Shown piece after piece: positions 1 to 13,999 of a stretch of DNA of 13,999 bases (positions are counted from its first letter, which is position 1; every line of letters begins with the position of its first letter). The notes under the pieces were generated by a model. That model saw only the letters and a program-made list of their open reading frames with translations, ran no database searches and was not told the DNA's origin. A program made the position numbers and the translations under genes. The stretch comes from a virus (lineage: Duplodnaviria; Heunggongvirae; Uroviricota; Caudoviricetes): positions 1 through 13,999 of the IMG/VR virus record IMGVR_UViG_2700989510_000001; one strand, 5' to 3'.

Positions 1-156
1 TTACTCCTCAGGTTCGTAAGCTGTGAAGACAGCGACCTCCGTCTGGCCGGTTCGGATTCGTACCTCGCAGAGGTCTTTCCTCGTTACCAGTGCCGTCACA
101 ATGACGGTTAAACAGATGACGATCAGGGCGATTAACATCGCCTTTTGCTGCTTCAT
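1..156 (-). CDS. hok: Hok/Gef family type I toxin, 51 aa
   Basis: Minus-strand translation MKQQKAMLIALIVICLTVIVTALVTRKDLCEVRIRTGQTEVAVFTAYEPEE: one N-terminal TM helix plus the conserved Hok motif (LTRK.LCE..R.G..EVA.F.AYE). AGGAG sits about 9 nt upstream of the ATG at 156; TAA stop at 1-3. The six-frame ORF extends in frame to 213 (70 aa), but the 51-aa form matches Hok family length. Confidence 0.8.
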   Translation of the reverse strand: MKQQKAMLIALIVICLTVIVTALVTRKDLCEVRIRTGQTEVAVFTAYEPEE

Positions 157-402
157 AGCCTGCTTCTCCTTGCCTTTCGGCACGTAAGAGGCTAACCTAC
201 GTTTGTGAAGCATAGATTGGGCCTCAGATTAATGTTAAACGTCTTGCAGGACGCGTAATGTTAACTGGGGCTTTTCTCTATCTGCCTTTTGGTGTTCATG
301 CCTGAGACAGATAGCCTCAAGCACCCGCAGCAATTCTACTTAACTCTCGCTTTACCGCAAACCGTTTTTACCCGATATGGGAATTCCCATATCGTAATGA
401 AT

Positions 403-507
403 TCAGTTCCCTAGTCGATCCATCAAAAACACAACCAGGCAGTAAACGCCCACAACAGCAATAACAGCCAGCGCACCTTCCATTGCCAGTGAAATATCAT
501 CCGACAT
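403..507 (-). CDS. hypothetical small hydrophobic peptide, 34 aa
   Basis: Hand translation of the minus strand gives MSDDISLAMEGALAVIAVVGVYCLVVFLMDRLGN with TGA stop at 403-405. A strong SD (AAAGGAGGGAAT) immediately precedes the ATG at 505-507. Below the 60-aa cutoff of the ORF track. Single predicted TM segment. Confidence 0.35.
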   Translation of the reverse strand: MSDDISLAMEGALAVIAVVGVYCLVVFLMDRLGN

Positions 508-622
508 ATTCCCTCCTTTGGTGTGAATCCCGGCGAACGTTTTTACCCCCACCGACAAATAACATATACTAAAAAATCAATAGCTATAGCAACGCCTGTA
601 ATTGCAAAGGCTTCAGGCCAGA

Positions 623-1336
623 TCATTGGCGCACCTCCTGCGGCGGTTCTGGTAGCGGCATCCAGTCGGTTACATTGCGGCTCTGTGTTTCGAAAAATTC
701 ATCACCATTACGGACTACATCAAAAAACTCACCGTCTCGATATTGCGCATAAAGAACGAATGCGCCATCACATAAAATAATTACGTGCTGACCATCATCC
801 GGCATTCGCTCACTACAGCTTATCCAACCATCCGGAGTTACCGGATAGTTGGTTGACGTTTCCGAGATTTCCCGAAAATTATTGGTTGACGAACCCTTAT
901 TTTCCCGAAAGTTTCCAGCCTGAAGCATGGCGGCGCGGCAGGCGTTCCATATTTCGGCAGCAATATCGCGCTCGCTATCGGTTAATTTGTACGTTGAAAC
1001 ATAGCCAGAGAGCATTTCTACGTTTTCCGGAGTTGCTTCTTCAGGCACTACCGGTGCTGGCTCACGTATTACAGGCTCGCCCATGCGTGATTCTCCCTGC
1101 GCCTCTTTCACCATGTGGTCATTGATTTGCTCCAGTCGCCGAACGTGCTCATCAGCTTCAAGCGCTCGCCGTTTCCAGATGGACAGGTCTTCACGAGCGC
1201 CCTGATATGCGTCACCGTATTCGCCGTTAAATACTGGCGCTGGCGGGGCGATGCGTCCAAGCAACTTATTTACCTCTTTCGCCATCGCGTCATATTTATC
1301 TAAATAGCGATTAGCTTCTAAGCAGACTCGGTGCAT
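623..1336 (-). CDS. prophage protein with C-terminal DUF551-like domain
   Basis: 237-aa ORF. C-terminal region WISCSERMPDDGQHVIILCDGAFVLYAQY...VTDWMPLPEPP resembles the DUF551 signature as I recall it. No convincing SD at the 1336 ATG; an internal ATG (MAKEV, about 1288) is an alternative start. Confidence 0.7.
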   Translation of the reverse strand: MHRVCLEANRYLDKYDAMAKEVNKLLGRIAPPAPVFNGEYGDAYQGAREDLSIWKRRALEADEHVRRLEQINDHMVKEAQGESRMGEPVIREPAPVVPEEATPENVEMLSGYVSTYKLTDSERDIAAEIWNACRAAMLQAGNFRENKGSSTNNFREISETSTNYPVTPDGWISCSERMPDDGQHVIILCDGAFVLYAQYRDGEFFDVVRNGDEFFETQSRNVTDWMPLPEPPQEVRQ

Positions 1337-1536
1337 CTGATCTGAGTTAACTCGTTTAACTGGATCTGCTTCCAGCTATGCCAGTGCAATTTTGAATAAC
1401 TCGCCCTATACCCGTGCCATCCCTGAATTGGGGTAGCATTTCGCAATCGCTATTTTTAATTTGGCTTCTTCGATTAATTTCTCTTTGGTTAATTCAGTCA
1501 CTTTTCATTACCGCCCTTTCGGGCGGCCTCCTGACA

Positions 1537-1749
1537 TTAATCGTTGTGATAACTCATAGCTTCATTTGCAGCATCAACTGGATCAACATCCCACCAGCAA
1601 TAATTTGGGTCGACACCTTCAGGTGTCCACGGCTCTAATTCATTTTTTGCCGCATTCTCGTCGCCAGTAATTTTAAAAATCTGCTCTGAGAACTTTTTCA
1701 CCCACTCGTTATATTTTTCAGCGTTAATAACTTTCTGTGCGTTTGACAT
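1537..1749 (-). CDS. hypothetical prophage protein, 70 aa
   Basis: ORF with ATG at 1747-1749 preceded by GGAGGT at optimal spacing; TAA stop at 1537-1539. Acidic small protein, no recognisable family. Confidence 0.65.
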   Translation of the reverse strand: MSNAQKVINAEKYNEWVKKFSEQIFKITGDENAAKNELEPWTPEGVDPNYCWWDVDPVDAANEAMSYHND

Positions 1750-1797
1750 TGATATACCTCCGGTTAAGGATTAAATTTTTAACAGAGCTAAATTTAA

Positions 1798-2154
1798 TTA
1801 TTCAGTTCTGGATTTTGTCACCCTGCGTATCCGCGCTTTCACGTTACGCTCAATCTGAATTAGCTTTTCTATATTTCTCCGCCTTTCCCGTTCCTCCTGG
1901 CGCAAGATCCTTACATCATCTGCCAGTCTGGTTTCTCTTTTCGCCACAGAGAGCATCCAGTCAAATGGCTCCACAACTGCACCGCAGATTTTACAGCGGA
2001 CCTGACGCTCTTTTTCGTCAACCCGGACAGAGGCGTGATGGCAATATGGTCTTTCCGATGGCTCATAGAGAAAATTAACCTGATTACGTGGGTCATCCTC
2101 TTTTACCGGAAATAAAACGATATTGCTTAACTCATCTTCTGGTTTTATTTCCAT
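1798..2154 (-). CDS. hypothetical protein with putative zinc-ribbon (C-x-H-H ... C-K-I-C)
   Basis: 118-aa ORF. Strong SD (AAAGGAGAGGAGC) directly upstream of the ATG at 2152-2154. Start overlaps the end of the upstream gene by 23 nt. Cys/His cluster PYCHHASVRVDEKERQVRCKICG. Confidence 0.7.
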   Translation of the reverse strand: MEIKPEDELSNIVLFPVKEDDPRNQVNFLYEPSERPYCHHASVRVDEKERQVRCKICGAVVEPFDWMLSVAKRETRLADDVRILRQEERERRRNIEKLIQIERNVKARIRRVTKSRTE

Positions 2155-2851
2155 GCTCCTCTCCTTTGATGCGAATGCCAGCGGCGCGGATTGCAGCGAT
2201 GACTTCAGAAACTTTGTATGCCATTACCGTTTGGTAATCATCGTGAAAATCTGTTCGATGAAGCATGCTGCTACGTTCTGGGAGCGATATTTCCCGTGCT
2301 TCCAGTTCTGCAATGCGCTTCTCTGCGGATTCCAACGCCGCAACCAATTCGTCTACAGTTCCGGCAGCTTGCAGTGCGTAATCGGTAATAGCCATCTCAT
2401 GATCAATTTCAGTACCGTTCTCATTCGTTGAGGTGATAGCAAAATAATCAGAGTCGATTTCGTTATCAGCTAAGTGGCGTAGCGTATCGGCAACAAGCCG
2501 GCCGTTTTCGATTAGCAGCTTCCCTTCCGTAAGCGCAATCTCCTCGTTCTCCTGGTCGCGTGATTTGATGTATTGCTGGTTTCTTTCCCGTTCATCCAGT
2601 AGTGCCAGCGCAACATTTGGATTAAAGGCAGCAATAAATTCAGCGTTTGCGTAAGCCTGAGCATCTGTTTCAACCAGGCAGTTAACATGACATTCTGCAA
2701 TTACGCCACCGGGTTCTCCTTTCCATTTTTGACAAACAAAAACTCCTGTTATATTCCCATGCTGATTGCCCGATGTATGCCCTACGATGTAGCATCCTTT
2801 AGTTGCTTTCTCTGCTGCTTCACGAAGCGCCTCATAGTTAACCTCTCTCAT
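2132..2851 (-). CDS. Ead/Ea22-like prophage protein
   Basis: 239-aa ORF. N-terminus ...YEALREAAEKATKG... resembles lambdoid Ead/Ea22-like early proteins as I recall them. AGGAGGTGG SD upstream of the ATG at 2849-2851. ATGA start/stop overlap with the upstream gene. Confidence 0.75.
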   Translation of the reverse strand: MREVNYEALREAAEKATKGCYIVGHTSGNQHGNITGVFVCQKWKGEPGGVIAECHVNCLVETDAQAYANAEFIAAFNPNVALALLDERERNQQYIKSRDQENEEIALTEGKLLIENGRLVADTLRHLADNEIDSDYFAITSTNENGTEIDHEMAITDYALQAAGTVDELVAALESAEKRIAELEAREISLPERSSMLHRTDFHDDYQTVMAYKVSEVIAAIRAAGIRIKGEEHGNKTRR

Positions 2852-3144
2852 TGAGCCACCTCCTGATAAATCACCGTATGTCCCAGTTTCTCCGCCAGTG
2901 CCAGCTCTGCCTTAGCGCCCGCTGACCGCTGCCAGCCATTCAGCATGTAAATCGCATCCACGCAACGAATCATTGCCATGCAAATATCCATGTAGTGCGG
3001 CTGTGTCAGCCCGTCCGGAAGTACTGCCGGGTTTAAGACTGTATGCCCTTCCCGTTTCAGTTCCTCTTCCGCCTTGTGGAACGCCTCACGGTTGAAATTT
3101 TTATACCCGGTCATCGGACCGGCGATATAAACCCTCACCCTCAC
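2848..3144 (-). CDS. DUF4406-like (nucleoside 2-deoxyribosyltransferase-like fold) protein
   Basis: 98-aa ORF beginning (M)RVRVYIAGPMTGYKNFNREAF, the N-terminal motif I associate with DUF4406. GTG start at 3142-3144 with AGGAGGT 6 nt upstream; GTGA overlap with the upstream stop. Confidence 0.75.
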   Translation of the reverse strand: MRVRVYIAGPMTGYKNFNREAFHKAEEELKREGHTVLNPAVLPDGLTQPHYMDICMAMIRCVDAIYMLNGWQRSAGAKAELALAEKLGHTVIYQEVAQ

Positions 3145-3533
3145 TCCATCACCTCCTGAAAATTACCCCGATAGAACGCCAGCACACGCTGCATAACTTC
3201 GCTCTGGCGGCACTCACGACAAATTATGTTCTGCCGTCTGTTGTAACGACGTATTTCTCCGTCAGGTAACTTTCGAATCAGTGTCGGGTCAGCAGCCTTC
3301 TCCGGTGTCTTACGCCATACGCGATACGCCTGCTCTGATAGAAATACCCCGCAACCAGAGAGCCAGACATCACCACTGGCCGCAAGCGCACCAGATAAAC
3401 GACGAATAGCGGTCTTACTGACACCCGTTTTATCTGCCAGTTGTCGAAAAGTTTCTCGTCCGCTCAGGCGCACGAATTCCACAATGCGCGCCCTCACTTC
3501 TTCCCGCTCTTCTGGTGTAAATACTTTTGCCAT
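3141..3533 (-). CDS. hypothetical protein with probable HTH
   Basis: ORF track gives 3141..3548, but that first codon is TTG. The in-frame ATG at 3531-3533 (MAKVFTPEE...) has GGAGG 5 nt upstream and lies just after the upstream stop (3549-3551). Segment ETFRQLADKTGVSKTAIRRL looks like a helix-turn-helix. Confidence 0.7.
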   Translation of the reverse strand: MAKVFTPEEREEVRARIVEFVRLSGRETFRQLADKTGVSKTAIRRLSGALAASGDVWLSGCGVFLSEQAYRVWRKTPEKAADPTLIRKLPDGEIRRYNRRQNIICRECRQSEVMQRVLAFYRGNFQEVME

Positions 3534-3548
3534 AAGCGCCTCCGGCAA

Positions 3549-4274
3549 TCACTTTTCCGACACAATACGACCGGATGAATCGACAATCTGCCGAACAATA
3601 TCCCGGTGCTTGTTCAGCTCCCGCAGCGCGGCGCAGACACGCTCCCACTTCTGAACCTGACCTTTTGCCCGGCGCAGCTCGCGGTTAGCCACATGCAGCG
3701 ATGGTAAAATCAGACCATCCGGATGTTTTCTGGTGAACAACGGCTGTGACTGCACTGTGACCGCCACACTTTCAGTTTTTATTTCTTCCTGTGTTTCCGC
3801 TTCCCGGACTGGTAACGCAACACCTGTTGGCTGAGGAAAGGCTTTACCATCGGTTTCCACTACGGATGCAGCTTCCGGCTCTGCCGGTAAATCAGCACCC
3901 GGTATGCAGTAACGAAATTTACCGCCCTGATTCACGCGAATCAGACGCCCTTTGCTGATTGCCATGGCCAGCGATGAATTCGCCCGGCGGGAGGTAATCC
4001 CGAACATCAGTGCCAGCTCATCCGCCGTTTGTGGGCCATGTTGTTCAATCGCCTCAGTCAGCATTTTCGCTGTCACTTTCGGTACCGGTGACACCGGTTC
4101 ACTTTCACCAGCCTGAATCAGCCACCACATCGACCCCTTGTTATCCGCTTCACCGCGGCGCTTCAGTTTCCACAGTTCGTTGACCGCATCTTCACGGCTG
4201 ATTCCAAGGCGGGCCGCCACTACCTGTGAAGAGGCTCTTTTCAGTGCTTTCAGTGCGTCAAATACGGTTTCCAT
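3549..4274 (-). CDS. prophage protein with two winged-helix-like segments (DUF1627-like)
   Basis: 241-aa ORF. ATG at 4272-4274 with GGAGGAAA SD. HTH-like segments [25 protein letters not shown] and [29 protein letters not shown]. Confidence 0.75.
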
Positions 4275-4307
4275 TAAAATTTCCTCCGATAAAATCGTTT
4301 CTCAGAT

Positions 4308-4970
4308 TCAAATAAAACCAGCTGCCTTCCGGCGTTCGTATTCCTGTTTCAGCCGTTCAATTGGCGTTGGCCCTTGCGGGTGTTTCGCCCCTTCCAGTTG
4401 TCGTCGCACTGGCGGAACACTCATCCCGTTACCAACATGCTTTGCCCATTTCGTCAGTTGCCGTTCCGCAAGTCGTTTTAACTCACCCTGCGTCATCTGG
4501 CGCTCAATCCCTCTGGTACGCATTTCGAGGCAGATGTGGTACAGCACAGGCTGTGGCCACGGGTATTTATCACTCCCGTCGTATCGCCAGGATTCATTGC
4601 GCCAGCGCCGGTACTCTTCCATCACGGCATCCACCGTAAGACCAAATGGATTTGCCCCACTCTCCGAAATCAGCGCAACAAACTCAGCCAGGTCCGGGGG
4701 CCACGTTTCACCCGCCCGGCAGCGGTCCATGCACTGACGGCAGACCAGACGGATTTGCTGTTCAGTCATCGCACCAATCTGGGCAATCCAGAGCTTCGAA
4801 GGTGCGGCCCCGTTCTTCTGAGTCCAGCGGTTCGAATACACCTCCCCCATAAGCTCCCACAGCTTCCAGGCCGTTTCCGTTGCTGATAAATCCGTTTTCA
4901 CGTTCCCACTGTTCGCGTGCTGCCCGGATTTCCTGAACTGCCCGTGATGCCGTGCCACCTGGTGCTGCAT
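4308..4970 (-). CDS. replication protein P-like (putative DnaB helicase loader)
   Basis: C-terminal half (...YPWPQPVLYHICLEMR...ELKRLAERQL...) parallels lambda P (...YPWKSNAHYWLVTNLY...ELRRKAADEL...) from memory. Start uncertain: the ATG at 4970 (AGGGGG SD) overlaps the upstream gene by 209 nt; an in-frame ATG at 4850 (GGGAG SD) is the alternative. Confidence 0.7.
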   Translation of the reverse strand: MQHQVARHHGQFRKSGQHANSGNVKTDLSATETAWKLWELMGEVYSNRWTQKNGAAPSKLWIAQIGAMTEQQIRLVCRQCMDRCRAGETWPPDLAEFVALISESGANPFGLTVDAVMEEYRRWRNESWRYDGSDKYPWPQPVLYHICLEMRTRGIERQMTQGELKRLAERQLTKWAKHVGNGMSVPPVRRQLEGAKHPQGPTPIERLKQEYERRKAAGFI

Positions 4971-5793
4971 GGCTTACCCCCTTGCTGACTGGTTTTACCT
5001 GTGCCCTGACGTGCTGCACGTGGCGGGCAAATTTCTGCTCCCACTGAACCTGCGTGAAAACCTTCCCTTCCGCCATCCAGTAATCCCGGAATGCGGCAAG
5101 CTCAGCAGGTGTAAATTCCGGCTCAGGCAGAGCCATACCCCACACTGCTGCCCGTTGTCGAAAATCCGGCGACGGCTGCCAGACAGTAGTCATCGAAAAT
5201 TTCCCGATCGGTTCGCTCAGGCCGTCCAGGTATTCAGGTTCGGCTGTCTGCAACGGCGCACCATTCGACTCACTGGTCGGAATACTCTCGCGCGCGTTAT
5301 GTGTGGGGTTTAATTCTGTATCTGTATCTTTATCTGTCGTGACTTGTCGTGACAGATGCGTGACACGTCGTGACTCATCGTGACAATCAGCATTATGTTT
5401 CCGCAGCTTTTCCCGCTCCCGCTGCGCTCTCTTGCGCTCTGCCGGGGATTTTGCCGTTTGCGAAACGTTACCATTGTCCTCTTTCAGCACCTGACGTTTT
5501 TCCCATCCGGAAATAAGGTCACCATCCAGAACCCGCCCCTGCATTGCATGCAAAATTGAATCAATTACGTCTTCCGTCACATCAAGCGCACTTGCTAAAT
5601 CTTCCGTCGTGACATCAATGTGACCACGTAGTGACACGCCGTGACATGTCGTGACATTTCGTGACGCGCTCACCAGAAGATGGATATACACTGCCATCAC
5701 TGTTGCGATTGGCTGTCCTGATACCCTGGCAATCGTTCGCCACTTGGGGTCATTTGGCATGTCATGCCACAATCTGAGCCAGGCATTAGCCAT
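4762..5793 (-). CDS. replication initiation protein (O-like role) with DnaT-like C-terminal domain
   Basis: Segment GKFSMTTVWQPSPDFRQRAAVWGMALPEPEFTPAELAAFRDYWMAEGKVFTQVQWEQKFARHVQ closely parallels the C-terminal domain of E. coli primosomal protein DnaT as I recall it. The ORF track starts at a GTG (5799); the ATG at 5791-5793 has AGAGGTGA SD. The gene contains two iteron arrays. Confidence 0.8.
   Translation of the reverse strand: MANAWLRLWHDMPNDPKWRTIARVSGQPIATVMAVYIHLLVSASRNVTTCHGVSLRGHIDVTTEDLASALDVTEDVIDSILHAMQGRVLDGDLISGWEKRQVLKEDNGNVSQTAKSPAERKRAQREREKLRKHNADCHDESRRVTHLSRQVTTDKDTDTELNPTHNARESIPTSESNGAPLQTAEPEYLDGLSEPIGKFSMTTVWQPSPDFRQRAAVWGMALPEPEFTPAELAAFRDYWMAEGKVFTQVQWEQKFARHVQHVRAQVKPVSKGVSHAAPGGTASRAVQEIRAAREQWERENGFISNGNGLEAVGAYGGGVFEPLDSEERGRTFEALDCPDWCDD
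5312..5386. repeat. iteron array 1 (putative phage origin element): TATCTGT repeats followed by 5 x (T/G)CGTGAC at about 10-bp spacing
   Basis: TCGTGAC at 5337, 5347, (GCGTGAC 5358), 5368, 5378, i.e. one per helical turn, all in the same orientation, preceded by tctgtatctgtatctttatctg. Lies inside the initiator gene. Confidence 0.6.
5605..5667. repeat. iteron array 2 (putative phage origin element): 6 x GTGAC(A) at 10-11 bp spacing
   Basis: GTGAC at 5609, 5620, 5631, 5641, 5651, 5661 with 10-11 bp periodicity, same orientation as array 1, about 270 bp away and inside the same gene. Confidence 0.6.
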
Positions 5794-5861
5794 ACTCACC
5801 TCTTCTGATACCGAACTTTACCCACGAACTTCCGAAAGAAATCCGGTATAAATATTGTTGG

Positions 5862-6287
5862 TCAATGCACAACAACTGCATTACCAGGCTGACCACCACT
5901 GTTAGTCAGGGTGCCCCAGGCGATCGCTACAGCGATAAAATCATCCACATCTTTCACCAGCCGATCCCGTCGTTCGACGATCTCCCGGTAATATTCAGAA
6001 CTGTGACTGCGCATACGGGCCACCAGCAAAGGCGGCATCGCCTTTTCGATCGCCGGTAACAGCGCCTGAATTTTTTCAACCGCATCAGGCGTATCCTTCT
6101 CCACCCAGCGGAAAATTTTCTGGGTATTACGGGCCAGGGCTTCCGGATGGCTGTCGTCGTACAGTTCCGGGAACGTCATCCCAAGTTCGAAATAAGTCCG
6201 GGCTATTTCAGCTGCAGGCACTTTCTCACCATCAGGATATGCCCAGGCATTCATCGCCATGCGGATGTGTTCATGTTTGATTTTCAT
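5862..6287 (-). CDS. CII-position protein, YdaT-like
   Basis: 141-aa ORF starting MKIKHEHI, which I recall as the N-terminus of Rac YdaT-family proteins. ATG at 6285-6287 overlaps the upstream stop (ATGA). Sits between the cro-like gene and the replication initiator, the lambda cII position. Confidence 0.65.
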   Translation of the reverse strand: MKIKHEHIRMAMNAWAYPDGEKVPAAEIARTYFELGMTFPELYDDSHPEALARNTQKIFRWVEKDTPDAVEKIQALLPAIEKAMPPLLVARMRSHSSEYYREIVERRDRLVKDVDDFIAVAIAWGTLTNSGGQPGNAVVVH

Positions 6288-6511
6288 GAATCATTTTTCC
6301 TTTCGTTCGAGGTGTTATCCTTCTTTTTGTAAAGTTCTGGGTTCAACGATAATTTTCCCTTGGAGTATGCAACTGCTTCAGCAGCCCTCCCCTTGGGAAC
6401 TATTTCGCCGGGACGCTTACGCCACATGTATATAGCTTCTCGGGTTACCCCATAAAAATCAGCGACTCTTTGGACAGAACCAAAAAACTGGACAAGTTCA
6501 TCAACTCGCAT
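6284..6511 (-). CDS. Cro-like HTH regulator (YdaS-like)
   Basis: 75-aa ORF with HTH segment VQRVADFYGVTREAIYMWRKR. GGGGGTG SD upstream of the ATG at 6509-6511. Divergent from the cI-like repressor across a 98-bp operator region. Confidence 0.75.
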   Translation of the reverse strand: MRVDELVQFFGSVQRVADFYGVTREAIYMWRKRPGEIVPKGRAAEAVAYSKGKLSLNPELYKKKDNTSNERKNDS

Positions 6512-6609
6512 TTCACCCCCTTAAAACTAAGTATTTTTAGATTAAAGGGTAATTTTTTTTAGGTCAATACAATCTAAAATAATTTATATTCAATTCGCGG
6601 GAGAAAATA
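6512..6609. promoter_or_regulatory. divergent immunity promoter/operator region (pR-like leftward, pRM-like rightward)
   Basis: 98-bp AT-rich intergenic region between divergent cro-like and cI-like genes. Inverted repeat ATTTTTAGATT (6533-6543) / AATCTAAAAT (6571-6580). Leftward candidate promoter TTGACC-17-TAATCT (minus strand; GGTCAA at 6562-6567 on plus). Rightward candidate -10 TATATT at 6585-6590. SD GGGAG before the cI ATG. Confidence 0.5.
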
Positions 6610-7254
6610 ATGGAAAGCCTTGGCATTAGGCTTAAGAAACTCAGAAAAGACAAAGGTCTGACCCAAGTTGAACTTGGCAAGCTTTCTGGCGTAACTGGGG
6701 TAACAATAGGATACTGGGAGAAAGATCTAAACGAACCAGGTAGCAAAGCTCTTAGTAAATTAGCCCTAGCACTAGGCACTACTGAGTCCTATCTCCTGTA
6801 TGGAGTATCATCTCCTGAATCATCCCTTGTGCAGAAAAATCCAGGTACCCAAATCCCATACCTTTCTTGGGGAGAAGCGATTTCTTTCCTAATATTAAAA
6901 GGAGAGAAAACTATGGGAACTGTCGACAGGATCACCACATTCTTTGATGTCAAGGAGGGAGATTTTGCCGTTTCAATGCCTGATGATACTATGCACAATC
7001 CATCAGGGTCCCCAAGCATTCCAGTTGGAGCCACAGTGATCATGAGGCCTGGCGAAAAATATAAAAATGGTAGCATCGTCGCAGTAATAGTCCCAGATCC
7101 ACTCACAAACGAACCATCCATGACTATAAAAAAATTAGTTATTGATGGAAAGCTCGTGTACTTAGCCCCCCTTAACCCACGCTATCAATCATCCTTACTT
7201 ACACCGGAATGTAACATCGTTGCTGTAGCAAAAGGTGTTCAGTTCAGCCTCTAG
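6610..7254 (+). CDS. cI: cI-like prophage repressor: N-terminal HTH_XRE + C-terminal S24 (LexA-like) peptidase domain
   Basis: 214-aa ORF. HTH LTQVELGKLSGVTGVTIGYWE. C-terminal block TIKKLVIDGKLVYLAPLNPRYQ parallels lambda cI [21 protein letters not shown] (catalytic Lys region). Ser-Met in AVSMPDD is the candidate nucleophile. Confidence 0.9.
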   Translation: MESLGIRLKKLRKDKGLTQVELGKLSGVTGVTIGYWEKDLNEPGSKALSKLALALGTTESYLLYGVSSPESSLVQKNPGTQIPYLSWGEAISFLILKGEKTMGTVDRITTFFDVKEGDFAVSMPDDTMHNPSGSPSIPVGATVIMRPGEKYKNGSIVAVIVPDPLTNEPSMTIKKLVIDGKLVYLAPLNPRYQSSLLTPECNIVAVAKGVQFSL

Positions 7255-7278
7255 CTCCCGCTTTGCCCTGTAATCAGA

Positions 7279-7303
7279 GGTCGGCTTTGTCGGCCTTTTA
7301 TCT
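7279..7303 (+). terminator. possible intrinsic terminator after cI
   Basis: GGTCGGC-TTT-GTCGGCC can pair as RNA only with two G-U wobbles, followed by TTTTATCTT. Weak. Confidence 0.3.
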
Positions 7304-7323
7304 TAAAAATATTTACATTCAAC

Positions 7324-7352
7324 TTGACGGCAAAACTAAATATTCTTATATT
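7324..7352 (+). promoter_or_regulatory. candidate sigma70 promoter for the downstream moron
   Basis: TTGACG (7324-7329), 17-nt spacer, TATATT (7347-7352): near-consensus -35/-10 with optimal spacing, between the cI stop and the next rightward genes. Confidence 0.5.
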
Positions 7353-7528
7353 CATTGCAACCCACCCCGCTTCACAGAATGCAGGGCAATACTTCGAGTT
7401 ACCAGGCAGTGGTCAGGGGTTAAGTAGCCAGCCCGAGGCGTAAGAACATGACGGCAGGGTTCAACTTTAATAACTATGCAGCAGGTTTTTGTTCCGCTAC
7501 CCCGGCGTTAAGGGGAAATGAGGTCAGC

Positions 7529-7681
7529 ATGGATACTATCGATCTTGGCAACAACGAATCTCTGGTATGTGGCGTGTTTCCCAATCAGGACGGCACGTTT
7601 ACCGCGATGACGTATACCAGAAGCAAAACGTTTAAAACTGAAGCTGGCGCGCGTCGCTGGTTAGCCAGAAACACTGACTGA
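7529..7681 (+). CDS. small hypothetical protein (50 aa; 77 aa if started at 7448)
   Basis: ORF track gives 7448..7681. The ATG at 7529 has GAGG 5 nt upstream; the 7448 ATG has a poorer SD. Sequence ...GVFPNQDGTFTAMTYTRSKTFKTEAGARRWLARNTD. Stop TGA overlaps the downstream ORF. Confidence 0.5.
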   Translation: MDTIDLGNNESLVCGVFPNQDGTFTAMTYTRSKTFKTEAGARRWLARNTD

Positions 7682-7692
7682 TGAGGTTGACG

Positions 7693-8331
7693 ATGGAATT
7701 TAAAGATTTACCTCCTTCAATCCAGGAGATTGCAGCACACACACTTCGTCATCGTCTGAACGAACTTGAATTGGAATCGGTAACGAAAAAAGACACTGAT
7801 AATATGGCTCGTAATGTGCGCGATGCGTTTACCGGATTGTATTTCTGTGCGTCTATAAATAAACACGACTCAGAGAGTGTGGCAAATAAAATTGCAGAAA
7901 CGACAGCGCAAAACATCAATACGAAACCAACGGAAGAAGAAATTGATCAGTTTGCTCATGATGCTGGTTTAAAAAACAAGAAAGAAAAATCGCCATATGC
8001 GGGGAACATGTTTGTTTATGACAATCTCATCAGAATTCGTGGCGAAATTCCGGCGGAATACCTGGCAAGAGTCCATCAGGCATTGCTTAAAAATTTGGAA
8101 ACAGAATTATTTGATGGCAACACTAACGGTTTCTTCATGGTATCAGGCCTTGAGAAAGACTGGGATGCAGAAAAACGCTGGAATGTTGCTACATGGTTAT
8201 TCAGTAACAGAGCCGCTGCACTGGAAGCTTCGGCATGTATTTGCGGCCTGTTCTTAACAGACCACAAATATAATCTGGATGTGTACAGTTATATTTACGC
8301 TGAACACGGTCCACTCTGGATTGACTGGTAA
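7693..8331 (+). CDS. hypothetical protein, 212 aa, AT-rich moron gene in the rexAB-equivalent position
   Basis: ORF track starts at 7681 (ATG overlapping the upstream TGA); the ATG at 7693 has GAGG 6 nt upstream. AT-rich relative to flanks. No TM segment and no recognisable family. Co-oriented with and downstream of cI. Confidence 0.75.
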   Translation: MEFKDLPPSIQEIAAHTLRHRLNELELESVTKKDTDNMARNVRDAFTGLYFCASINKHDSESVANKIAETTAQNINTKPTEEEIDQFAHDAGLKNKKEKSPYAGNMFVYDNLIRIRGEIPAEYLARVHQALLKNLETELFDGNTNGFFMVSGLEKDWDAEKRWNVATWLFSNRAAALEASACICGLFLTDHKYNLDVYSYIYAEHGPLWIDW

Positions 8332-8541
8332 TTATAAGGAAACACCAGCAGGGCCGCGGCGACCAACAGAACGATTAAAATCAATAATGCCATTATAAAG
8401 GACATTATTTAATTTATCGTCGAATGCTGATTCTGTGAGCCTCAACTCTGAATGAGTTTTTAATAACCCTGATTGCCTGAGTTGATTTACCAGGCATTCA
8501 ATCTGTTTTTCAATAAGCGGATTTCTTTTTTTGTTTGGCAT
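8332..8541 (-). CDS. hypothetical small protein, 69 aa
   Basis: ORF track gives 8332..8553; the second ATG (8539-8541, MPNKKRNPLIEKQ...) is preceded by GGAGGATAAA. Its stop codon directly abuts the stop of the convergent 212-aa gene (TAATTA at 8329-8334). Confidence 0.5.
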   Translation of the reverse strand: MPNKKRNPLIEKQIECLVNQLRQSGLLKTHSELRLTESAFDDKLNNVLYNGIIDFNRSVGRRGPAGVSL

Positions 8542-8940
8542 TTTATCCTCCATTGAGGTTCTGGGTTAAAAATGGAGACCAACACGCTGTCACGTGTGGT
8601 CGTGCGCCGGACACGGATAAGAATCCGGTACTGACAGTTTACTGAAAGGATATTTCCCTGAAAAGTCAGGGCATAACGCGAAAGCGTACGGCGAAGCTCT
8701 TTCCCTTAGAAGGCTTGTCGTTAGATTTCTTCGAACGTGCGCTTCCGGTTGTGGCAATCCGCGAAATGGCGCGGCGGTAAGTATGGCGGGGTTATTCCTT
8801 CCCCATTGAGGACACCGGGTTGTCAGGTTGACCATACGCTTAAGTGACAACCCCGCTGCAACGCCCTCTGTTATCAATTTTCTGGTGACGTTTGGCGGTA
8901 TCAGTTTTACTCCGTGGCTGCTCTGCCGCCCTTTTTAAAG

Positions 8941-9088
8941 TGAATTTTGTGATGCGGTGAATGCGGCTCAGCGCACGCGGAACAGTTAAAACCAAAAACA
9001 GTGTTATGGGTGGATTCTCTGTATCCGGCGTTAATTGTTAACTGGTTAACGTCACCTGGAGGCACCAGGCACCGCATCACAAAATTCA
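8941..9088. repeat. perfect 19-bp inverted repeat pair flanking a 110-bp segment
   Basis: Left arm TGAATTTTGTGATGCGGTG (8941-8959); right arm CACCGCATCACAAAATTCA (9070-9088), its exact reverse complement. The match does not extend on either side. The right arm ends 17 nt before the ATG at 9106. Confidence 0.6.
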
Positions 9089-9105
9089 TTGTTGAGGACG
9101 CGATA

Positions 9106-9294
9106 ATGGAAACGTTATTACCAAACGTTAATACGTCTGAAGGTTGTTTTGATATTGGTGTTCTGCTCAGTAACCGGGAGTTTACTGAAGATGCCATTAA
9201 TATGAGGAAATATGAGCCTTATCTGCTCAATGATAATTCCATACTTTCCCGAATTGCTCTTCTTGAACTTGGTATTTTCGGAGAACGTCAATGA
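9106..9294 (+). CDS. small hypothetical protein, 62 aa (kil position of early-left operon)
   Basis: ATG at 9106 with GAGGA SD (ORF track frame begins at 9001). Stop overlaps the next ATG (ATGA at 9291-9294). First gene after the ORF-poor region and upstream of the exonuclease. Confidence 0.5.
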   Translation: METLLPNVNTSEGCFDIGVLLSNREFTEDAINMRKYEPYLLNDNSILSRIALLELGIFGERQ

Positions 9295-9461
9295 CTTCAG
9301 CATTTGCACTGATGATGACGGTTTTTCTTATAACGGGTGAATCACAGAATGTGATTACCGGAATTTATGCCAGTAAAGAATCCTGCCTCCAGGCAAGAGA
9401 CGAGCAAAAAATTTCTGGTGAATGCCTCCCGGTAAAAAAAAGTATCGCTGTACCTGAATAA
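9291..9461 (+). CDS. small hypothetical protein, 56 aa, hydrophobic N-terminus
   Basis: Hand translation MTSAFALMMTVFLITGESQNVITGIYASKESCLQARDEQKISGECLPVKKSIAVPE, TAA at 9459-9461. Translationally coupled (ATGA) to the upstream ORF. Below the ORF-track size cutoff. Confidence 0.5.
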   Translation: MTSAFALMMTVFLITGESQNVITGIYASKESCLQARDEQKISGECLPVKKSIAVPE

Positions 9462-9572
9462 CGAAACACCGGCTGGATAACCCTCCAGCCATATTAACAC
9501 CATACCAACGGATTAAAAATGCCAGCAATGGCAGGGATTTGTTCACCCTTAAATCTGTAATGAGGTTTATCA

Positions 9573-12032
9573 ATGAGCACTGATAAAGAAGAATTTGCGC
9601 TATATTGCGAAGCAAAAAATGACAAAGTCAGAAAACGTCTGGGAATTAAAGGTGGTTTTTACTGGACTACAGCAAAAAAATTATCTGTTGCCATCTCCCG
9701 CTGCATTACCGCAATGGATGACAACGATTATGATGAAGACGACTTTAAAAAACCCGTTCGCGTCCATTTACCCGTTGTGAATGACCTTCCACCTGAAGGC
9801 GTGTTTGATACCGAATTCTGCAACCGATACGAAAAAGGCGGGGAAGATGGCATTACAATGGTATTTATCGCGCCCTCTCCCTCCGTGCAGGAGAAACCAG
9901 CCAGTACTGACAATACCAACGTCAACGGCGAAGACATGACGGAGATTGAGGAGAATATGCTCCTGCCGGTTTCTGGTCAGGAGCTGCCCATTCGCTGGCT
10001 TGCGCAACACGGCAGCGAAAAACCAGTAACGCACGTTGCACGGGAAGAACTTCAGGCATTACATATAGCACGGGCGGAAGAACTGCCGGCTGTTACTGCC
10101 CTGGCCATTTCCCACAACACAAAGCTGCTCGACCCGCTGGAGATTCGCGACCTTCATAAACTGGCACGCGACACTGACAAAGTTTTCCCTAATCCCGGTA
10201 ATTCAGACCTGGGACTGATAACTGCTTTTTTCGAGGCATACCTGGACGCTGACTACACTGATCGGGGTCTGCTGACAAAAGAGTGGATGAAAGGAAATCG
10301 TGTTTCGCGTATCACCCGTACGGCTTCCGGTGCAAATGCCGGTGGCGGGAACAAAACCGATCGCAATCCGAATTTAGTACACACCTTCGATACGCTGGAT
10401 GTGGAGATTGCAGCAGCCACACTTCCGATGGATTTTAATATTTATGAAATTCCGGGCAGCGTTTATCGTCGCGCAAAAGAAATCGTCCTGAAAAGAGAAA
10501 GTCCGTTCAAAGAATGGTCCGCAGCACTTCGCGCAACCCCGGGTATTCTGGACTATTCCCGCGCCGCTATTTTTGCACTTATCCGGAGCGCTCACCCTGA
10601 GTTTTATCACTACCCGGGACGCCTTCAGGGGTATATCAACGCCTACTTAACGGAGACTGATCACGAGAACCCCAGCAAGGAAACTCTCACTGCTGCACGA
10701 CATACACCGGAAAAAGATATCCTGGAAGAAGTTAACCGCGAACTGGCTGCTAAGCAGGAAACAGAAGAAGAAAATGATGAAGAAAAACCGCAACCATCTT
10801 GCGCAATGGCAGATGAACAGGCAACGGCTGAAACAGTGGAACCGGATGCAACTGAACATCATCAGGACACGCAGCCGCTGGATGCTCAGTCACAGGTAAA
10901 TTCTGTTGATGCGAAATATCAGAAACTGCGGGCAGAACTCCATGAAGCCCGGAAAAACATTCCGCCCCAAAATCCTGTCGATGCAGACAAATTACTGGCT
11001 GCCTCTCGCGGAGAATTTGTTGAAGGGATTAGCGACCCGAATGATCCGAAATGGATTAAGGGGATCCAGACCCGCGATTCTGTGTACCAGAATCAGCCAG
11101 AAACGGAACAGAACGACCAGAAAGCGGAACAGAACAGCCCAAATACGCAACAAAACGAGCCAGAAACGAAACAACCTGAACCAGTAGTGCAACAGGAACC
11201 GGAAAAGATCTGCACCACCTGCGGTCAGACCGGCGGCGGCAACTGCCCTGATTGTGGCGCGGTGATGGGCGACGCAACATACCAGGAAACATTCGATGAC
11301 AAGAACCTGGTTGAAGTTCAGGAAGACGATTCGGAGAAAATGGAAGGCGCTGAACATCCACACAAGGAGAATGCTGGCAGCGCTCAGGACCACGCCAGCG
11401 ATAGTGAAACTGGCGAGACGGCAGATCCCTTAATTACGGTGAACGGTCATCACGTTATCACATCCACCAGCAGGACGTGTGACCATCTAATGATCGACCT
11501 TGAAACCATGGGAAAAAATCCTGATGCCCCGATTATCTCAATAGGTGCAATATTTTTCGATCCGCAAACCGGAGATATGGGACCGGAATTTAGTAAGACT
11601 ATCGATCTGGAAACTGCTGGCGGAGTCATTGATCGGGACACCATTAAATGGTGGCTTAAGCAATCACGCGAAGCGCAATCTGCCATTATGACCGATGAAA
11701 TCCCGTTAGATGATGCACTGTTACAATTGCGGGAATTTATCGACGAAAACTCCGGTGAATTCTTTGTTCAGGTCTGGGGAAATGGAGCCAACTTCGACAA
11801 CACGATTTTGCGCCGTTCATACGAACGGCAGGGGATCCCCTGCCCGTGGCGTTACTACAACGATCGCGATGTGCGCACAATCGTTGAGCTGGGGAAAGCC
11901 ATAGACTTCGATGCCAGAACGGCTATTCCATTCGAAGGTGAGCGCCATAATGCACTTGATGACGCCCGTTACCAGGCAAAATACGTTTCAGTTATCTGGC
12001 AAAAACTGATCCCGAGTCAGGCTGATTCTTAA
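9573..12032 (+). CDS. prophage exonuclease: RecE-like N-terminal region + zinc ribbon + C-terminal DnaQ-like DEDDh 3'-5' exonuclease domain
   Basis: 819-aa ORF with GAGGT SD. N-terminal blocks ([70 protein letters not shown]) match what I recall of the RecE (exodeoxyribonuclease VIII) N-terminal region. [16 protein letters not shown] is a zinc-ribbon-like motif. C-terminus carries DEDDh motifs: MIDLETMG (D-x-E), [12 protein letters not shown] (D), HNALDDARY (H-x3-D). Confidence 0.9.
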
Positions 12033-12042
12033 TGTTCAACTG

Positions 12043-12074
12043 TCGCCGGTTGTGACTGGTATTCTGCAACCGGC
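12043..12074 (+). other. 9-bp-stem hairpin between exonuclease and excisionase genes
   Basis: CGCCGGTTG (12043-12051) / CAACCGGCG (12066-12074), perfect 9-bp inverted repeat with 14-nt loop; no downstream U-tract. Confidence 0.3.
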
Positions 12075-12104
12075 GCTCGTCTGATGTAAGAGATAAAGAA
12101 AGCG

Positions 12105-12356
12105 ATGAGCGAAGTAATCATGATTGTCTCTCCCGGCAAATGGGTATCCGAAGAGCAGTTAATTGCGCTGAAAGGAATAAAAAAAGGTACGTTAAAAAAG
12201 GCCCGGGAAAAATCGTTTATGGAAGGAAGGGAATATAAGCATGTCGCTCATGACGGTATGCCATGGGATAACAGTCCATGCTTTTACAACCTGGAAGAAA
12301 TTGATCGCTGGATTGAGCGCCAGGCATCTGCAAGACCAAGACGTCATCTTGCTTGA
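12105..12356 (+). CDS. xis: excisionase-like protein
   Basis: 83-aa ORF immediately upstream of the integrase on the same strand. Contains a GREY motif reminiscent of lambda Xis (DGREY). Start could also be the ATG at 12120. Confidence 0.65.
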   Translation: MSEVIMIVSPGKWVSEEQLIALKGIKKGTLKKAREKSFMEGREYKHVAHDGMPWDNSPCFYNLEEIDRWIERQASARPRRHLA

Positions 12357-12390
12357 CTAAAAGCAACACGAACCAATGAGAGAAGCTGAA

Positions 12391-13671
12391 ATGAAATATC
12401 CGACAGGCGTGGAAAACCATGGAGGGAAATTACGTATCTGGTTTGTTTATAAAGGTGTAAGAGTCCGGGAAAATCTTGGGGTTCCTGACACAGCAAAAAA
12501 CAGGCGCATTGCAGGTGAGCTACGCGCCTCTGTTTGTTACGCAATAAAAACTGGCGCTTTCGACTATGCAAAACAGTTTCCCGCCTCACACAATCTGGAA
12601 AAATTTGGTGAGGCCCGACAAGATTTAACCATAAAAGAACTGGCTGAAAAATTTCTGGCACTGAAAGAAACTGAAGTCGCAAAAACGTCACTCAACACGT
12701 ACCGTGCCGTCATCAAAAATATTCTGAGCATAATCGGTGAAAAAAATCTTGCATCATCGATTAATAAAGAAAAATTGCTGGCGGTACGTAAAGAGTTACT
12801 GACTGGATACCAGATCCCCAAAAGTAACTATATTGTTACACAACCAGGGAGATCGGCTGTTACCGTAAATAATTACATGACAAATCTTTACGCCGTGTTC
12901 CAGTTTGGTGTTGATAACGGTTATCTGGCAGACAATCCATTTAAGGGGATCTCACCATTAAAGGGGTCGAGAACCATCCCGGATCCACTTTCGCGGGAGG
13001 AGTTTATCCGCCTTATTGACGCGTGCAGAAATCAGCAAGCCAAAAATTTATGGTGTGTTTCCGTTTATACTGGGATTCGCCCTGGTGAACTCTGTGCGCT
13101 TGGATGGGAAGATATAGATCTGAAAAATGGAACAATGATAATCAGAAGAAATCTGGCAAAAGACCGTTTTACAGTACCAAAAACACAGGCGGGAACCAAT
13201 CGTGTGATTCACCTTATTAAGCCCGCAATCGACGCTCTCCGGAGTCAGATGGCACTAACGAGACTGAGCAAAGAGCATATCATCGATGTTCACCTCAGAG
13301 AATTCGGCAGAACAGAGAAACAAAAATGTACCTTTGTTTTTCAACCTGAAGTGTCAGCGAAAGTAAAAAATTATGGTGACCATTTTACCGTTGACTCAAT
13401 AAGGCAGATGTGGGACGCAGCGGTAAAGCGTGCCGGAATCCGCCATCGCAAATCGTATCAGTCGAGACACACTTATGCCTGCTGGTCGTTAACAGCAGGA
13501 GCTAACCCGGCATTCATTGCAAACCAGATGGGCCATGCAGATGCGCAAATGGTGTTTCAGGTGTACGGGAAATGGATGTCAGAAAATAATAATGCGCAGG
13601 TAACGCTGTTAAATACACAGTTAAGCGAGTTTGCCCCAACCATGCCCCATAACGAAGCGATGAAAAGTTAA
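12391..13671 (+). CDS. int: tyrosine site-specific integrase (lambdoid/Rac-type)
   Basis: ORF track starts at 12376; the ATG at 12391 (MKYPTGVENHGGKLRIWF...) has a GAGAAG SD-like element and matches the N-terminus I recall for Rac-type integrases. C-terminal catalytic box ...RHTYACWSLTAGANPAFIANQMGHADAQMVFQVYGKW (R, H-x-x-R, H, Y). Confidence 0.9.
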   Translation: MKYPTGVENHGGKLRIWFVYKGVRVRENLGVPDTAKNRRIAGELRASVCYAIKTGAFDYAKQFPASHNLEKFGEARQDLTIKELAEKFLALKETEVAKTSLNTYRAVIKNILSIIGEKNLASSINKEKLLAVRKELLTGYQIPKSNYIVTQPGRSAVTVNNYMTNLYAVFQFGVDNGYLADNPFKGISPLKGSRTIPDPLSREEFIRLIDACRNQQAKNLWCVSVYTGIRPGELCALGWEDIDLKNGTMIIRRNLAKDRFTVPKTQAGTNRVIHLIKPAIDALRSQMALTRLSKEHIIDVHLREFGRTEKQKCTFVFQPEVSAKVKNYGDHFTVDSIRQMWDAAVKRAGIRHRKSYQSRHTYACWSLTAGANPAFIANQMGHADAQMVFQVYGKWMSENNNAQVTLLNTQLSEFAPTMPHNEAMKS

Positions 13672-13814
13672 TTTTTTATTTATCAATTAGTTAGATTGAA
13701 TGACTCTTGAAATCCATAAATTCAAGCGCAGTGCCCAGCCATCCCGATACTGCTGCTTTCACCAAATCCTTAGTGCTTCTTTCATGTTTTTCTATTGTCA
13801 TAATGGTTATCTCT

Positions 13815-13882
13815 AAAAAAGAGGTAAGAAGCGTACTACTTACTCGCCGTTATTGGTATTATTCAGAAAAAGGTAAGCGTAC
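13815..13882. repeat. direct repeats AAAAAGGTAAG(AA)GCGTAC downstream of int; candidate integrase arm-type sites in the att region
   Basis: aaaaaagaGGTAAGaaGCGTAC (13815-13836) and agaaaaaGGTAAGCGTAC (13865-13882), about 50 bp apart, then a short palindrome GTCTGGTCAGAATCTGAC (13893-13910). Function inferred from position only. Confidence 0.35.
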
Positions 13883-13999
13883 AGCCTGAACCGTCTGGTC
13901 AGAATCTGACGAATTAGACAAAGTGGTGTCCACCAAATAAGTAGTGGGAACCAAAGTGTCAGATATGCAGAAAAATGTGACTCCCGGCAGGCGAAAAGG

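Follow-up and report, generated by a model that had tools for sequence, protein, structure and literature searches.

Sequence downstream of a lambdoid prophage integrase gene is very probably a composite of a ydfJ attachment site, host DNA and an ISEc8 end

Where does a prophage end, and which of the sequences past its integrase gene are bound by the integrase, when the assembled DNA stops shortly after that gene? This question is raised by positions 13672-13999 of a 13,999-nucleotide stretch of viral DNA, referred to here as the window, which corresponds to positions 1 to 13,999 of the IMG/VR record IMGVR_UViG_2700989510_000001. The final prophage gene in the window encodes the integrase, as the original prediction from the letters had it, and it is preceded by a gene for a putative excisionase:

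12105..12356, plus strand: excisionase of 83 aa, matching the Pfam family DUF1233 (putative excisionase, E=1.6e-31)
12376..13671, plus strand: tyrosine integrase of 431 aa with an arm-binding domain at its N terminus; last prophage gene

The integrase matches the Pfam domains Arm-DNA-bind_2 over residues 9-71 (E=6.7e-24) and Phage_integrase over residues 206-397 (E=5e-19), and genes collinear with that of the excisionase are annotated 'excisionase family protein' in two of the loci compared (L003 and L004). At the DNA level, int is 99.7% identical to its counterparts in the ydfJ prophages of STEC O145:H28, O111:H11 and O103:H2, and identity is about 93% with K-12 intQ and with the integrase gene of phage mEp460_ev081. 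The window as a whole is the early-left arm of a lambdoid prophage, with hokD, ea22-like genes, a replication/immunity segment, dicB, ydfD, a RecE-like exonuclease gene, xis and int, and is collinear with the nleC-carrying ydfJ prophage of O145:H28 strain RM12761 at 98.8-99.6% identity, except for 3973-7341. In this exceptional replication/immunity segment only 369 bp (5925-6293) match RM12761, at 90%, an arrangement typical of lambdoid mosaic replacement. At the other end of the arm, positions 1-213 (minus strand) appear to start inside a hokD/mokD-type type I toxin locus, judging from collinearity with the annotated hokD of L004 (470-625). The exonuclease encoded upstream of xis (9573-12032, plus strand, 819 aa) has part of the Exonuc_VIII (RecE) N-terminal domain at residues 57-189 and, towards its C terminus, an Rv2179c-like 3'-5' exoribonuclease domain at residues 638-809, and its RefSeq labels vary between 'exonuclease', '3'-5' exonuclease' and 'RecE family'.

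When positions 13400-13999 were aligned by megablast against 5,426 complete E. coli genomes, the region fell into three parts with sharp breakpoints. Matches to the 3' end of int reach approximately 13724, matches annotated as ydfJ and rspB run from 13706-13709 to 13872, and from 13872-13873 to 13999 the matches are to IS66-like elements and ISEc8, many of which are plasmid-borne. In the phage records mEp460_ev081, HannyBb, Tritos, PhiR42_1 and the Stx2a phage series, the match stops at 13721-13724. These breakpoints, and those of a separate first alignment, agree with a four-way comparison of attachment sites, in which attB was taken from strain 675SK2, attP from phage mEp460_ev081, one junction from the window, and the far junction from the near-identical prophage of O145:H28 RM12761. 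Positions 13672-13999 are very probably a composite of three unrelated pieces of DNA, namely a phage P' arm with its core, host chromosome, and ISEc8. The first piece (13672-13719) belongs to a lambdoid prophage integrated in E. coli ydfJ and comprises the core and short P' arm of its attachment site. The second (13720-13872) is ordinary host chromosome, in which, from right to left on the minus strand, the rspB end is followed by a 57-bp spacer and then by the ydfJ start. The third (13873-13999) is the left tip of an ISEc8 element inserted by transposition in the last rspB codons. No observation spoke against the junction, the host assignment or that of the insertion sequence. The junction, the target gene ydfJ and the insertion sequence are all already described.

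The attachment site was delimited by the four-way comparison as follows:

13709-13719: perfect 11-bp core, GAAATCCATAA
13706-13724: imperfect att of 18/19 bp, CTTGAAATCCATAAATTCA

The attB site of 675SK2 reads AACTG-GAAATCCATAA-ATTCAAGCG, and the attP site of the sequenced phage mEp460_ev081 reads CTCTT-GAAATCCATAA-TTCACAGGT. To the left of the core, the window follows the attP of mEp460_ev081 and the int-DinI junction of O157, and to the right of the core it follows the intact ydfJ of 675SK2. The window junction is the int-proximal one, of the form P'-O-B' (attL in the lambda convention). The reciprocal pattern (BOP) is found at the far junction of the RM12761 prophage, 47.7 kb away, adjoining an N-terminally truncated ydfJ and a DinI-like gene. 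With one mismatch and one indel allowed, the shared att amounts to 18 bp in attP and 19 bp in attB. Read from these alignments, the crossover between phage and host is at the perfect 11-bp core, and the prophage ends 38 bp past the int stop codon, inside ydfJ. Strand exchange by the integrase would have taken place within or beside the 11-bp identity, in ydfJ codons 28-31 (FMDF), and integration would have left the first 31 codons of ydfJ adjoining int. The predicted att sequences are CTCTTGAAATCCATAATTCAC for attP and AACTGGAAATCCATAAATTCAAG for attB. That the prophage end and its attachment core lie within the last 300 bp of the window had been anticipated, and this is borne out by the four-way comparison; the check proposed at the time, an alignment to a prophage-free strain, located the junction when 675SK2 served as the reference. 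The T-rich tract reported after int is likewise present, as a T/A-rich stretch downstream of the stop codon (13669-13671).

Attachment sites of this kind are known from published work. For prophages at ydfJ, an '18- or 19-bp att sequence' was defined by Nakamura et al. 2021 (PMC8112680), who obtained attP from PCR, used a prophage-free ydfJ as attB, and noted that K-12 also carries a phage there; an attP PCR product was reported in the same study for the PPydfJ of O26:H11 strain 11368. A search of the whole window recovered no tRNA, and the integrase is thus not of the tRNA-targeting type. Inspection by eye revealed nothing convincing in the way of core-type inverted repeats flanking GAAATCCATAA. 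Scanned for terminators and promoters, positions 13500-13999 gave no terminator downstream of int and one weak promoter-like match, at the expected background rate. In the chromosome of O157:H7 strain 6535NalR, an attP-type junction consisting of a truncated int, the core and a DinI-like gene is present (L002, 3721-4692), a sign that prophages at ydfJ are in tandem or clustered there, an arrangement that has been described for O157:H7 (PMC8112680). In the same locus, an ISEc8 copy lies in an IS256-family transposase gene, 1.2 kb from the attP-type junction.

To the right of the core, the window carries the following host features:

13691..13801, minus strand: truncated ydfJ', in which codons 1-31 of the gene for the MFS transporter YdfJ run into 5 codons of phage origin and a stop
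13802..13858, no strand assigned: rspB-ydfJ spacer (57 bp), matching prophage-free 675SK2 base for base
13859..13872, minus strand: rspB 3' end, with the ...FSE codons and the stop (13859-13861), severed from the rest of the gene by the insertion sequence

The host target gene had been considered unidentifiable from this fragment, yet the minus strand of the window carries a readable, truncated 5' fragment of ydfJ. The ATG of ydfJ is at 13801 and the gene reads leftwards, with the host 5' end occupying 13801 to 13709 on the minus strand. Translation of ydfJ' gives MTIEKHERSTKDLVKAAVSGWLGTALEFMDF followed by KSHSI and the stop, and intact YdfJ, which begins MTIEKHERSTKDLVKAAVSGWLGTALEFMDFQLYSLGAALVF, is identical through residue 31 and then continues QLYSLGAALVF. 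For rspB, the intact translation ends ...KVLLTFSE, of which the window keeps FSE and the stop codon. In 675SK2, which has no prophage at this site, the genes are arranged rspA-rspB-ydfJ-ydfI and, in the orientation of the window, all lie on the minus strand; the rspB-ydfJ spacer is 57 bp. As for other signals in this interval, an inverted repeat across the ydfJ start (13775-13791/13816-13832) was considered as an RNA structure and rejected, the spacer RNA fold having z=-0.75, and a terminator scan found no terminator-like site in the 13802-13858 spacer.

Read on the minus strand, the att core (13709-13719) encodes FMDF of YdfJ, part of an EFMDF stretch close to where the first transmembrane segment starts. 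Related transporters of the MHS family have E-(W/F)-(F/Y)-D-F at the position of the YdfJ EFMDF. With its core in this stretch, the phage targets a conserved coding motif, and the reading frame is not restored upon integration.

The ydfJ-like segment might instead be a phage-borne copy, either a moron or captured host DNA, with the true prophage end lying past the window. The window does stop in a repeat element, such that the far side cannot be read directly; against this, closely related lysogens run on from the segment into rspB, rspA, ynfA and ynf genes, the other 424 ydfJ codons are found at the opposite prophage end, beside ydfI, and positions 13725-13872 are absent from phage genomes. 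A phage-borne copy is regarded as scarcely credible.

The third piece of the region is the insertion sequence, whose features in the window are:

13873..13999, plus strand: left end of ISEc8 (IS66 family), with the terminal inverted repeat starting GTAAGCGTACAGC at 13873
13898-13910: palindrome in ISEc8, GTCAGAATCTGAC
13965: tnpA start codon, at IS position 93, the window stopping inside the element
13865..13872: predicted 8-bp target-site duplication, AGAAAAAG, deduced from the L002 and L003 copies, the right end of this copy lying outside the window

Elements of the IS66 family, including ISEc8, have terminal inverted repeats beginning GTAAGCG, generate an 8-bp target-site duplication, and encode tnpA, tnpB and a transposase. 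The family features used here were taken in part from the annotated loci examined; nothing useful was found in the literature for the IS66 GTAAGCG terminus. Compared with ISEc8/IS66-like left ends from many chromosomes and plasmids, the end in the window shows 98.5-100% identity, and compared with the annotated L002 copy, 99.2%. Its first 11 tnpA codons, the only ones in the window, encode MQKNVTPGRRK, as in the annotated TnpA, and the tnpA-tnpB-transposase gene set is annotated in both L002 and L003. The L003 copy, in strain CFIAFB20190167, is 2442 bp long, has the ends GTAAGCGTAC...GTACGCTTAC and is flanked by an 8-bp duplication of GTAAGACT, and the L002 copy, in O157:H7, is flanked by an 8-bp duplication of GACATCAG. 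By analogy, the right end of the copy in the window is predicted to read ...GTACGCTTAC followed by AGAAAAAGTGAGTAAGACTTTGC.

The exact rspB::ISEc8 junction of the window was found in 0 of the 5,426 complete E. coli genomes and rests on one assembly. The only complete genome that covers the junction, that of CFIAFB20190167, has ISEc8 in the same orientation and 11 bp deeper in rspB. At other places, the alignment of some IS copies extends a few bases past the IS end, as is expected by chance with approximately 14,700 places. The end of the contig at 13999, 127 bp into a multicopy insertion sequence, suggests a short-read assembly that was broken in a repeat, and the position of the contig end is probably explained by the tendency of assemblers to break in IS copies.

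How, then, are the repeats and the palindrome that were noticed downstream of int to be understood? The three strings are as follows:

13815-13836: first repeat, reading AAAAAAGAGGTAAGAAGCGTAC
13865-13882: second repeat, reading AGAAAAAGGTAAGCGTAC
13893-13910: palindrome, reading GTCTGGTCAGAATCTGAC

The original prediction took the two repeats for arm-type sites and the palindrome for a core-type site, with the prophage reaching to about 13910. The strings do exist at these coordinates, and an integrase with an arm-binding domain is expected to have arm-type sites near att; it is the assignment of the strings as integrase sites that fails. The first repeat lies in the rspB-ydfJ intergenic DNA of the host. 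The attP-type loci against which it was compared were drawn from IMG/VR contigs, the phage record and the O157 tandem-prophage junction, and comprise 17 loci with 8 distinct sequences, 7 of which are alignable by length. The first repeat is missing from 17 of these 17 loci and is found in the prophage-free locus L001, so that the supposed conservation of the repeats with the integrase is contradicted by observation. Its motif, GGTAAGNNGCGTAC, occurs in L001 and, in the lysogens L003 and L004, only in the host DNA beside the prophage, and in none of the 17 attP-type loci. The second repeat runs from the last rspB codons 10 bp into the left terminal repeat of ISEc8, its first half being the predicted target duplication AGAAAAAG. 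As for the palindrome, the true symmetry is confined to GTCAGA-A-TCTGAC (13898-13910), with arms of only 6 bp, which corresponds to IS positions 26-38 and is located inside ISEc8.

The resemblance between the two repeats is itself limited. They have in common only AGGTAAG and (G)CGTAC, which are split by a 3-nt indel and not by a 2-nt one, and the A-runs upstream of the two repeats are out of register in the alignment. An ungapped repeat search of 13500-13999 recovered no family containing the two repeats; within these 500 bp it did list several chance pairs as good as theirs or better. Their score on gapped self-alignment is 18, and a direct repeat scoring at least 18 occurred in 54% of 200 dinucleotide-preserving shuffles of 13672-13999; the best self-alignment in this region scores 21, a value reached by 12% of the 200 shuffles. 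The similarity of the two repeats is no more than chance. The direct repeats are a chance resemblance between a host spacer and the joint of a target duplication with an IS terminal repeat, and the palindrome is internal IS sequence. Added to this are the attP homology of phages, which stops at 13721-13724, the contiguity of 13706-13872 as host sequence in prophage-free strains, and the occurrence of the second repeat and the palindrome, as parts of ISEc8, at thousands of unrelated places including plasmids. A role for these strings as arm-type and core-type sites retains next to no probability and, on the sequences compared, is already refuted by the four-way comparison.

A different reason for the resemblance can be envisaged, in which the similarity of the host spacer word GGTAAGAAGCGTAC (13823-13836) to the ISEc8 end GTAAGCGTAC is not due to chance, and reflects either an old IS66-family relic or a preference of the element for end-like targets. 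Two ISEc8 insertions occurred independently in the last rspB codons (window 13862-13873; L003 5465-5492 and 7919-7934), which could represent a local hot spot or a coincidence. The two insertions, in the window strain and in CFIAFB20190167, have the same orientation and are 11 bp apart, no other complete genome has ISEc8 in the last rspB codons, and the CFIAFB20190167 target GTAAGACT resembles the IS end GTAAGCGT. In addition, both insertions are at or beside the host word GTAAGACT, 37-50 bp from the host word GGTAAGAAGCGTAC, and both of these words resemble the IS end GTAAGCGTAC. If ISEc8 were drawn to sequences like its own termini, the direct repeat would be a footprint of such end-mimic target choice, an idea that must be considered improbable. 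Set against it are the small number of events, which is only two, and a similarity score equalled in more than half of the shuffles described above. Moreover, strains that lack the insertion sequence at this position conserve the spacer motif as part of their host DNA, and the third ISEc8 copy examined has the unrelated target GACATCAG. A relic or a target preference is thus held to be doubtful, and chance is the preferred explanation of the resemblance.

If the repeats are host and IS sequence, where might the arm-type sites be? An integrase with an Arm-DNA-bind_2 domain is expected to have arm-type sites, which are necessarily in phage DNA. The following candidates were found in and around the P' arm, and at the opposite end of the prophage:

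13632-13638 and 13643-13649, plus strand: candidate P'-arm arm-type Int sites, two copies of TGCCCCA, 11 bp start to start, in the 3' coding end of int
13681..13693, plus strand: candidate IHF-consensus site, TATCAATTAGTTA (consensus WATCAANNNNTTR), between the candidate arm sites and the core
Outside the window, at the far prophage end: candidate P-arm tandem-pair segment, TGTCCCATATATGCCCCA

Among the 7 distinct attP variants that could be aligned, the longest invariant block on the int side is TAAGCGAGTTTGCCCCAACCATGCCCCATAAC, at -87 to -55 from the core, and it holds both copies of TGCCCCA. In the P arm, the invariant block TGTCCCATATATGCCCC (+130 to +147) is present in every attP examined and is the longest in an otherwise diverged arm, the homology between the two P-arm types stopping just past it. 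Both invariant blocks contain two copies of TG(C/T)CCCA that are 11 bp apart and in the same orientation, and these tandem pairs do not vary among 7-8 attP variants. The motif TGYCCCA occurs 5 times in the 14-kb window, 2 of the occurrences being those at 13632-13649. The IHF consensus has a single match over both strands of the whole window, 0.85 matches being expected by chance, and its consensus positions are kept in the diverged attP sites (TATCAAATAGTTG and TATCAAATGGTTA), with the N positions varying. Such a pattern is suggestive of a P' arm in which a putative IHF site at 13681-13693 and TGCCCCA arm sites inside int are paired with a tandem pair in the P arm. This proposal is favoured by a narrow margin only, because the P' copies are also under coding constraint: they encode FAPTMPH, and their invariance could reflect constraint on the protein and not Int binding. 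The attP variants examined are all fairly close relatives, which limits the depth of the footprinting. Between the core and the TGYCCCA pair of the P arm, GTTTTTTCA occurs twice as an invariant block, at +19 to +27 and +58 to +70 (for instance at approximately 16350-16400 of L006, outside the window), and these blocks are possible candidates for sites of excisionase or of an accessory protein.

For the annotation of this record, the consequence is a boundary at 13709-13719, ydfJ as the target, and assignment of the last 127 bp to ISEc8. Without this correction, host and IS sequence would be miscounted as phage regulatory DNA, with small practical consequences. In the strain itself, ydfJ is split, and rspB is parted from its last codons by the insertion sequence. 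Mildly new is the proposed attP architecture for the widespread phages that integrate at ydfJ and carry T3SS effectors such as nleC in STEC, in which the arm-type sites would be TGYCCCA and one pair of them would lie within the int frame.

Comparison with known systems places the three pieces in context. Over the last 127 bp, the window and annotated left ends of ISEc8 are 99-100% identical, and related copies are 2442 bp long with 8-bp target duplications; the window has only the first 127 bp of the element. The prophage shares its integration site and core with the PPydfJ prophages of STEC/EPEC and with the cryptic Qin prophage of K-12, and also their order dicB-ydfD-recE-like exonuclease-xis-int-(ydfJ')-rspB, and the length of the att agrees with the published 18-19 bp for PPydfJ (PMC8112680). 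As in the window, rspB comes directly after the integrase gene in K-12 derivatives, where this gene (intQ of Qin) is truncated by IS2. The window differs from the RM12761 ydfJ prophage in its replication/immunity segment (3973-7341), and the strain differs from the complete genomes in having ISEc8 in the adjacent rspB, at a position seen in 0 of 5,426.

The junction can also be set beside that of phage lambda, in whose attP the core is followed by the H' IHF site and by the arm sites P'1-P'3. Like the lambda attL (B-O-P'), the window has an int-proximal junction together with an integrase that has a separate arm-binding domain. The core of the window is unrelated in sequence to that of lambda and lies inside a protein-coding gene, whereas the lambda site is between gal and bio. 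Unlike in lambda, the core follows the int stop codon after only 37 bp, which would put the candidate arm sites inside the int frame, and there are two candidate P' copies, not three. As proposed from the sequence, the succession of core, IHF site and tandem arm sites spaced by about 11 bp would nonetheless mirror the O-H'-P'1-3 arrangement of lambda.
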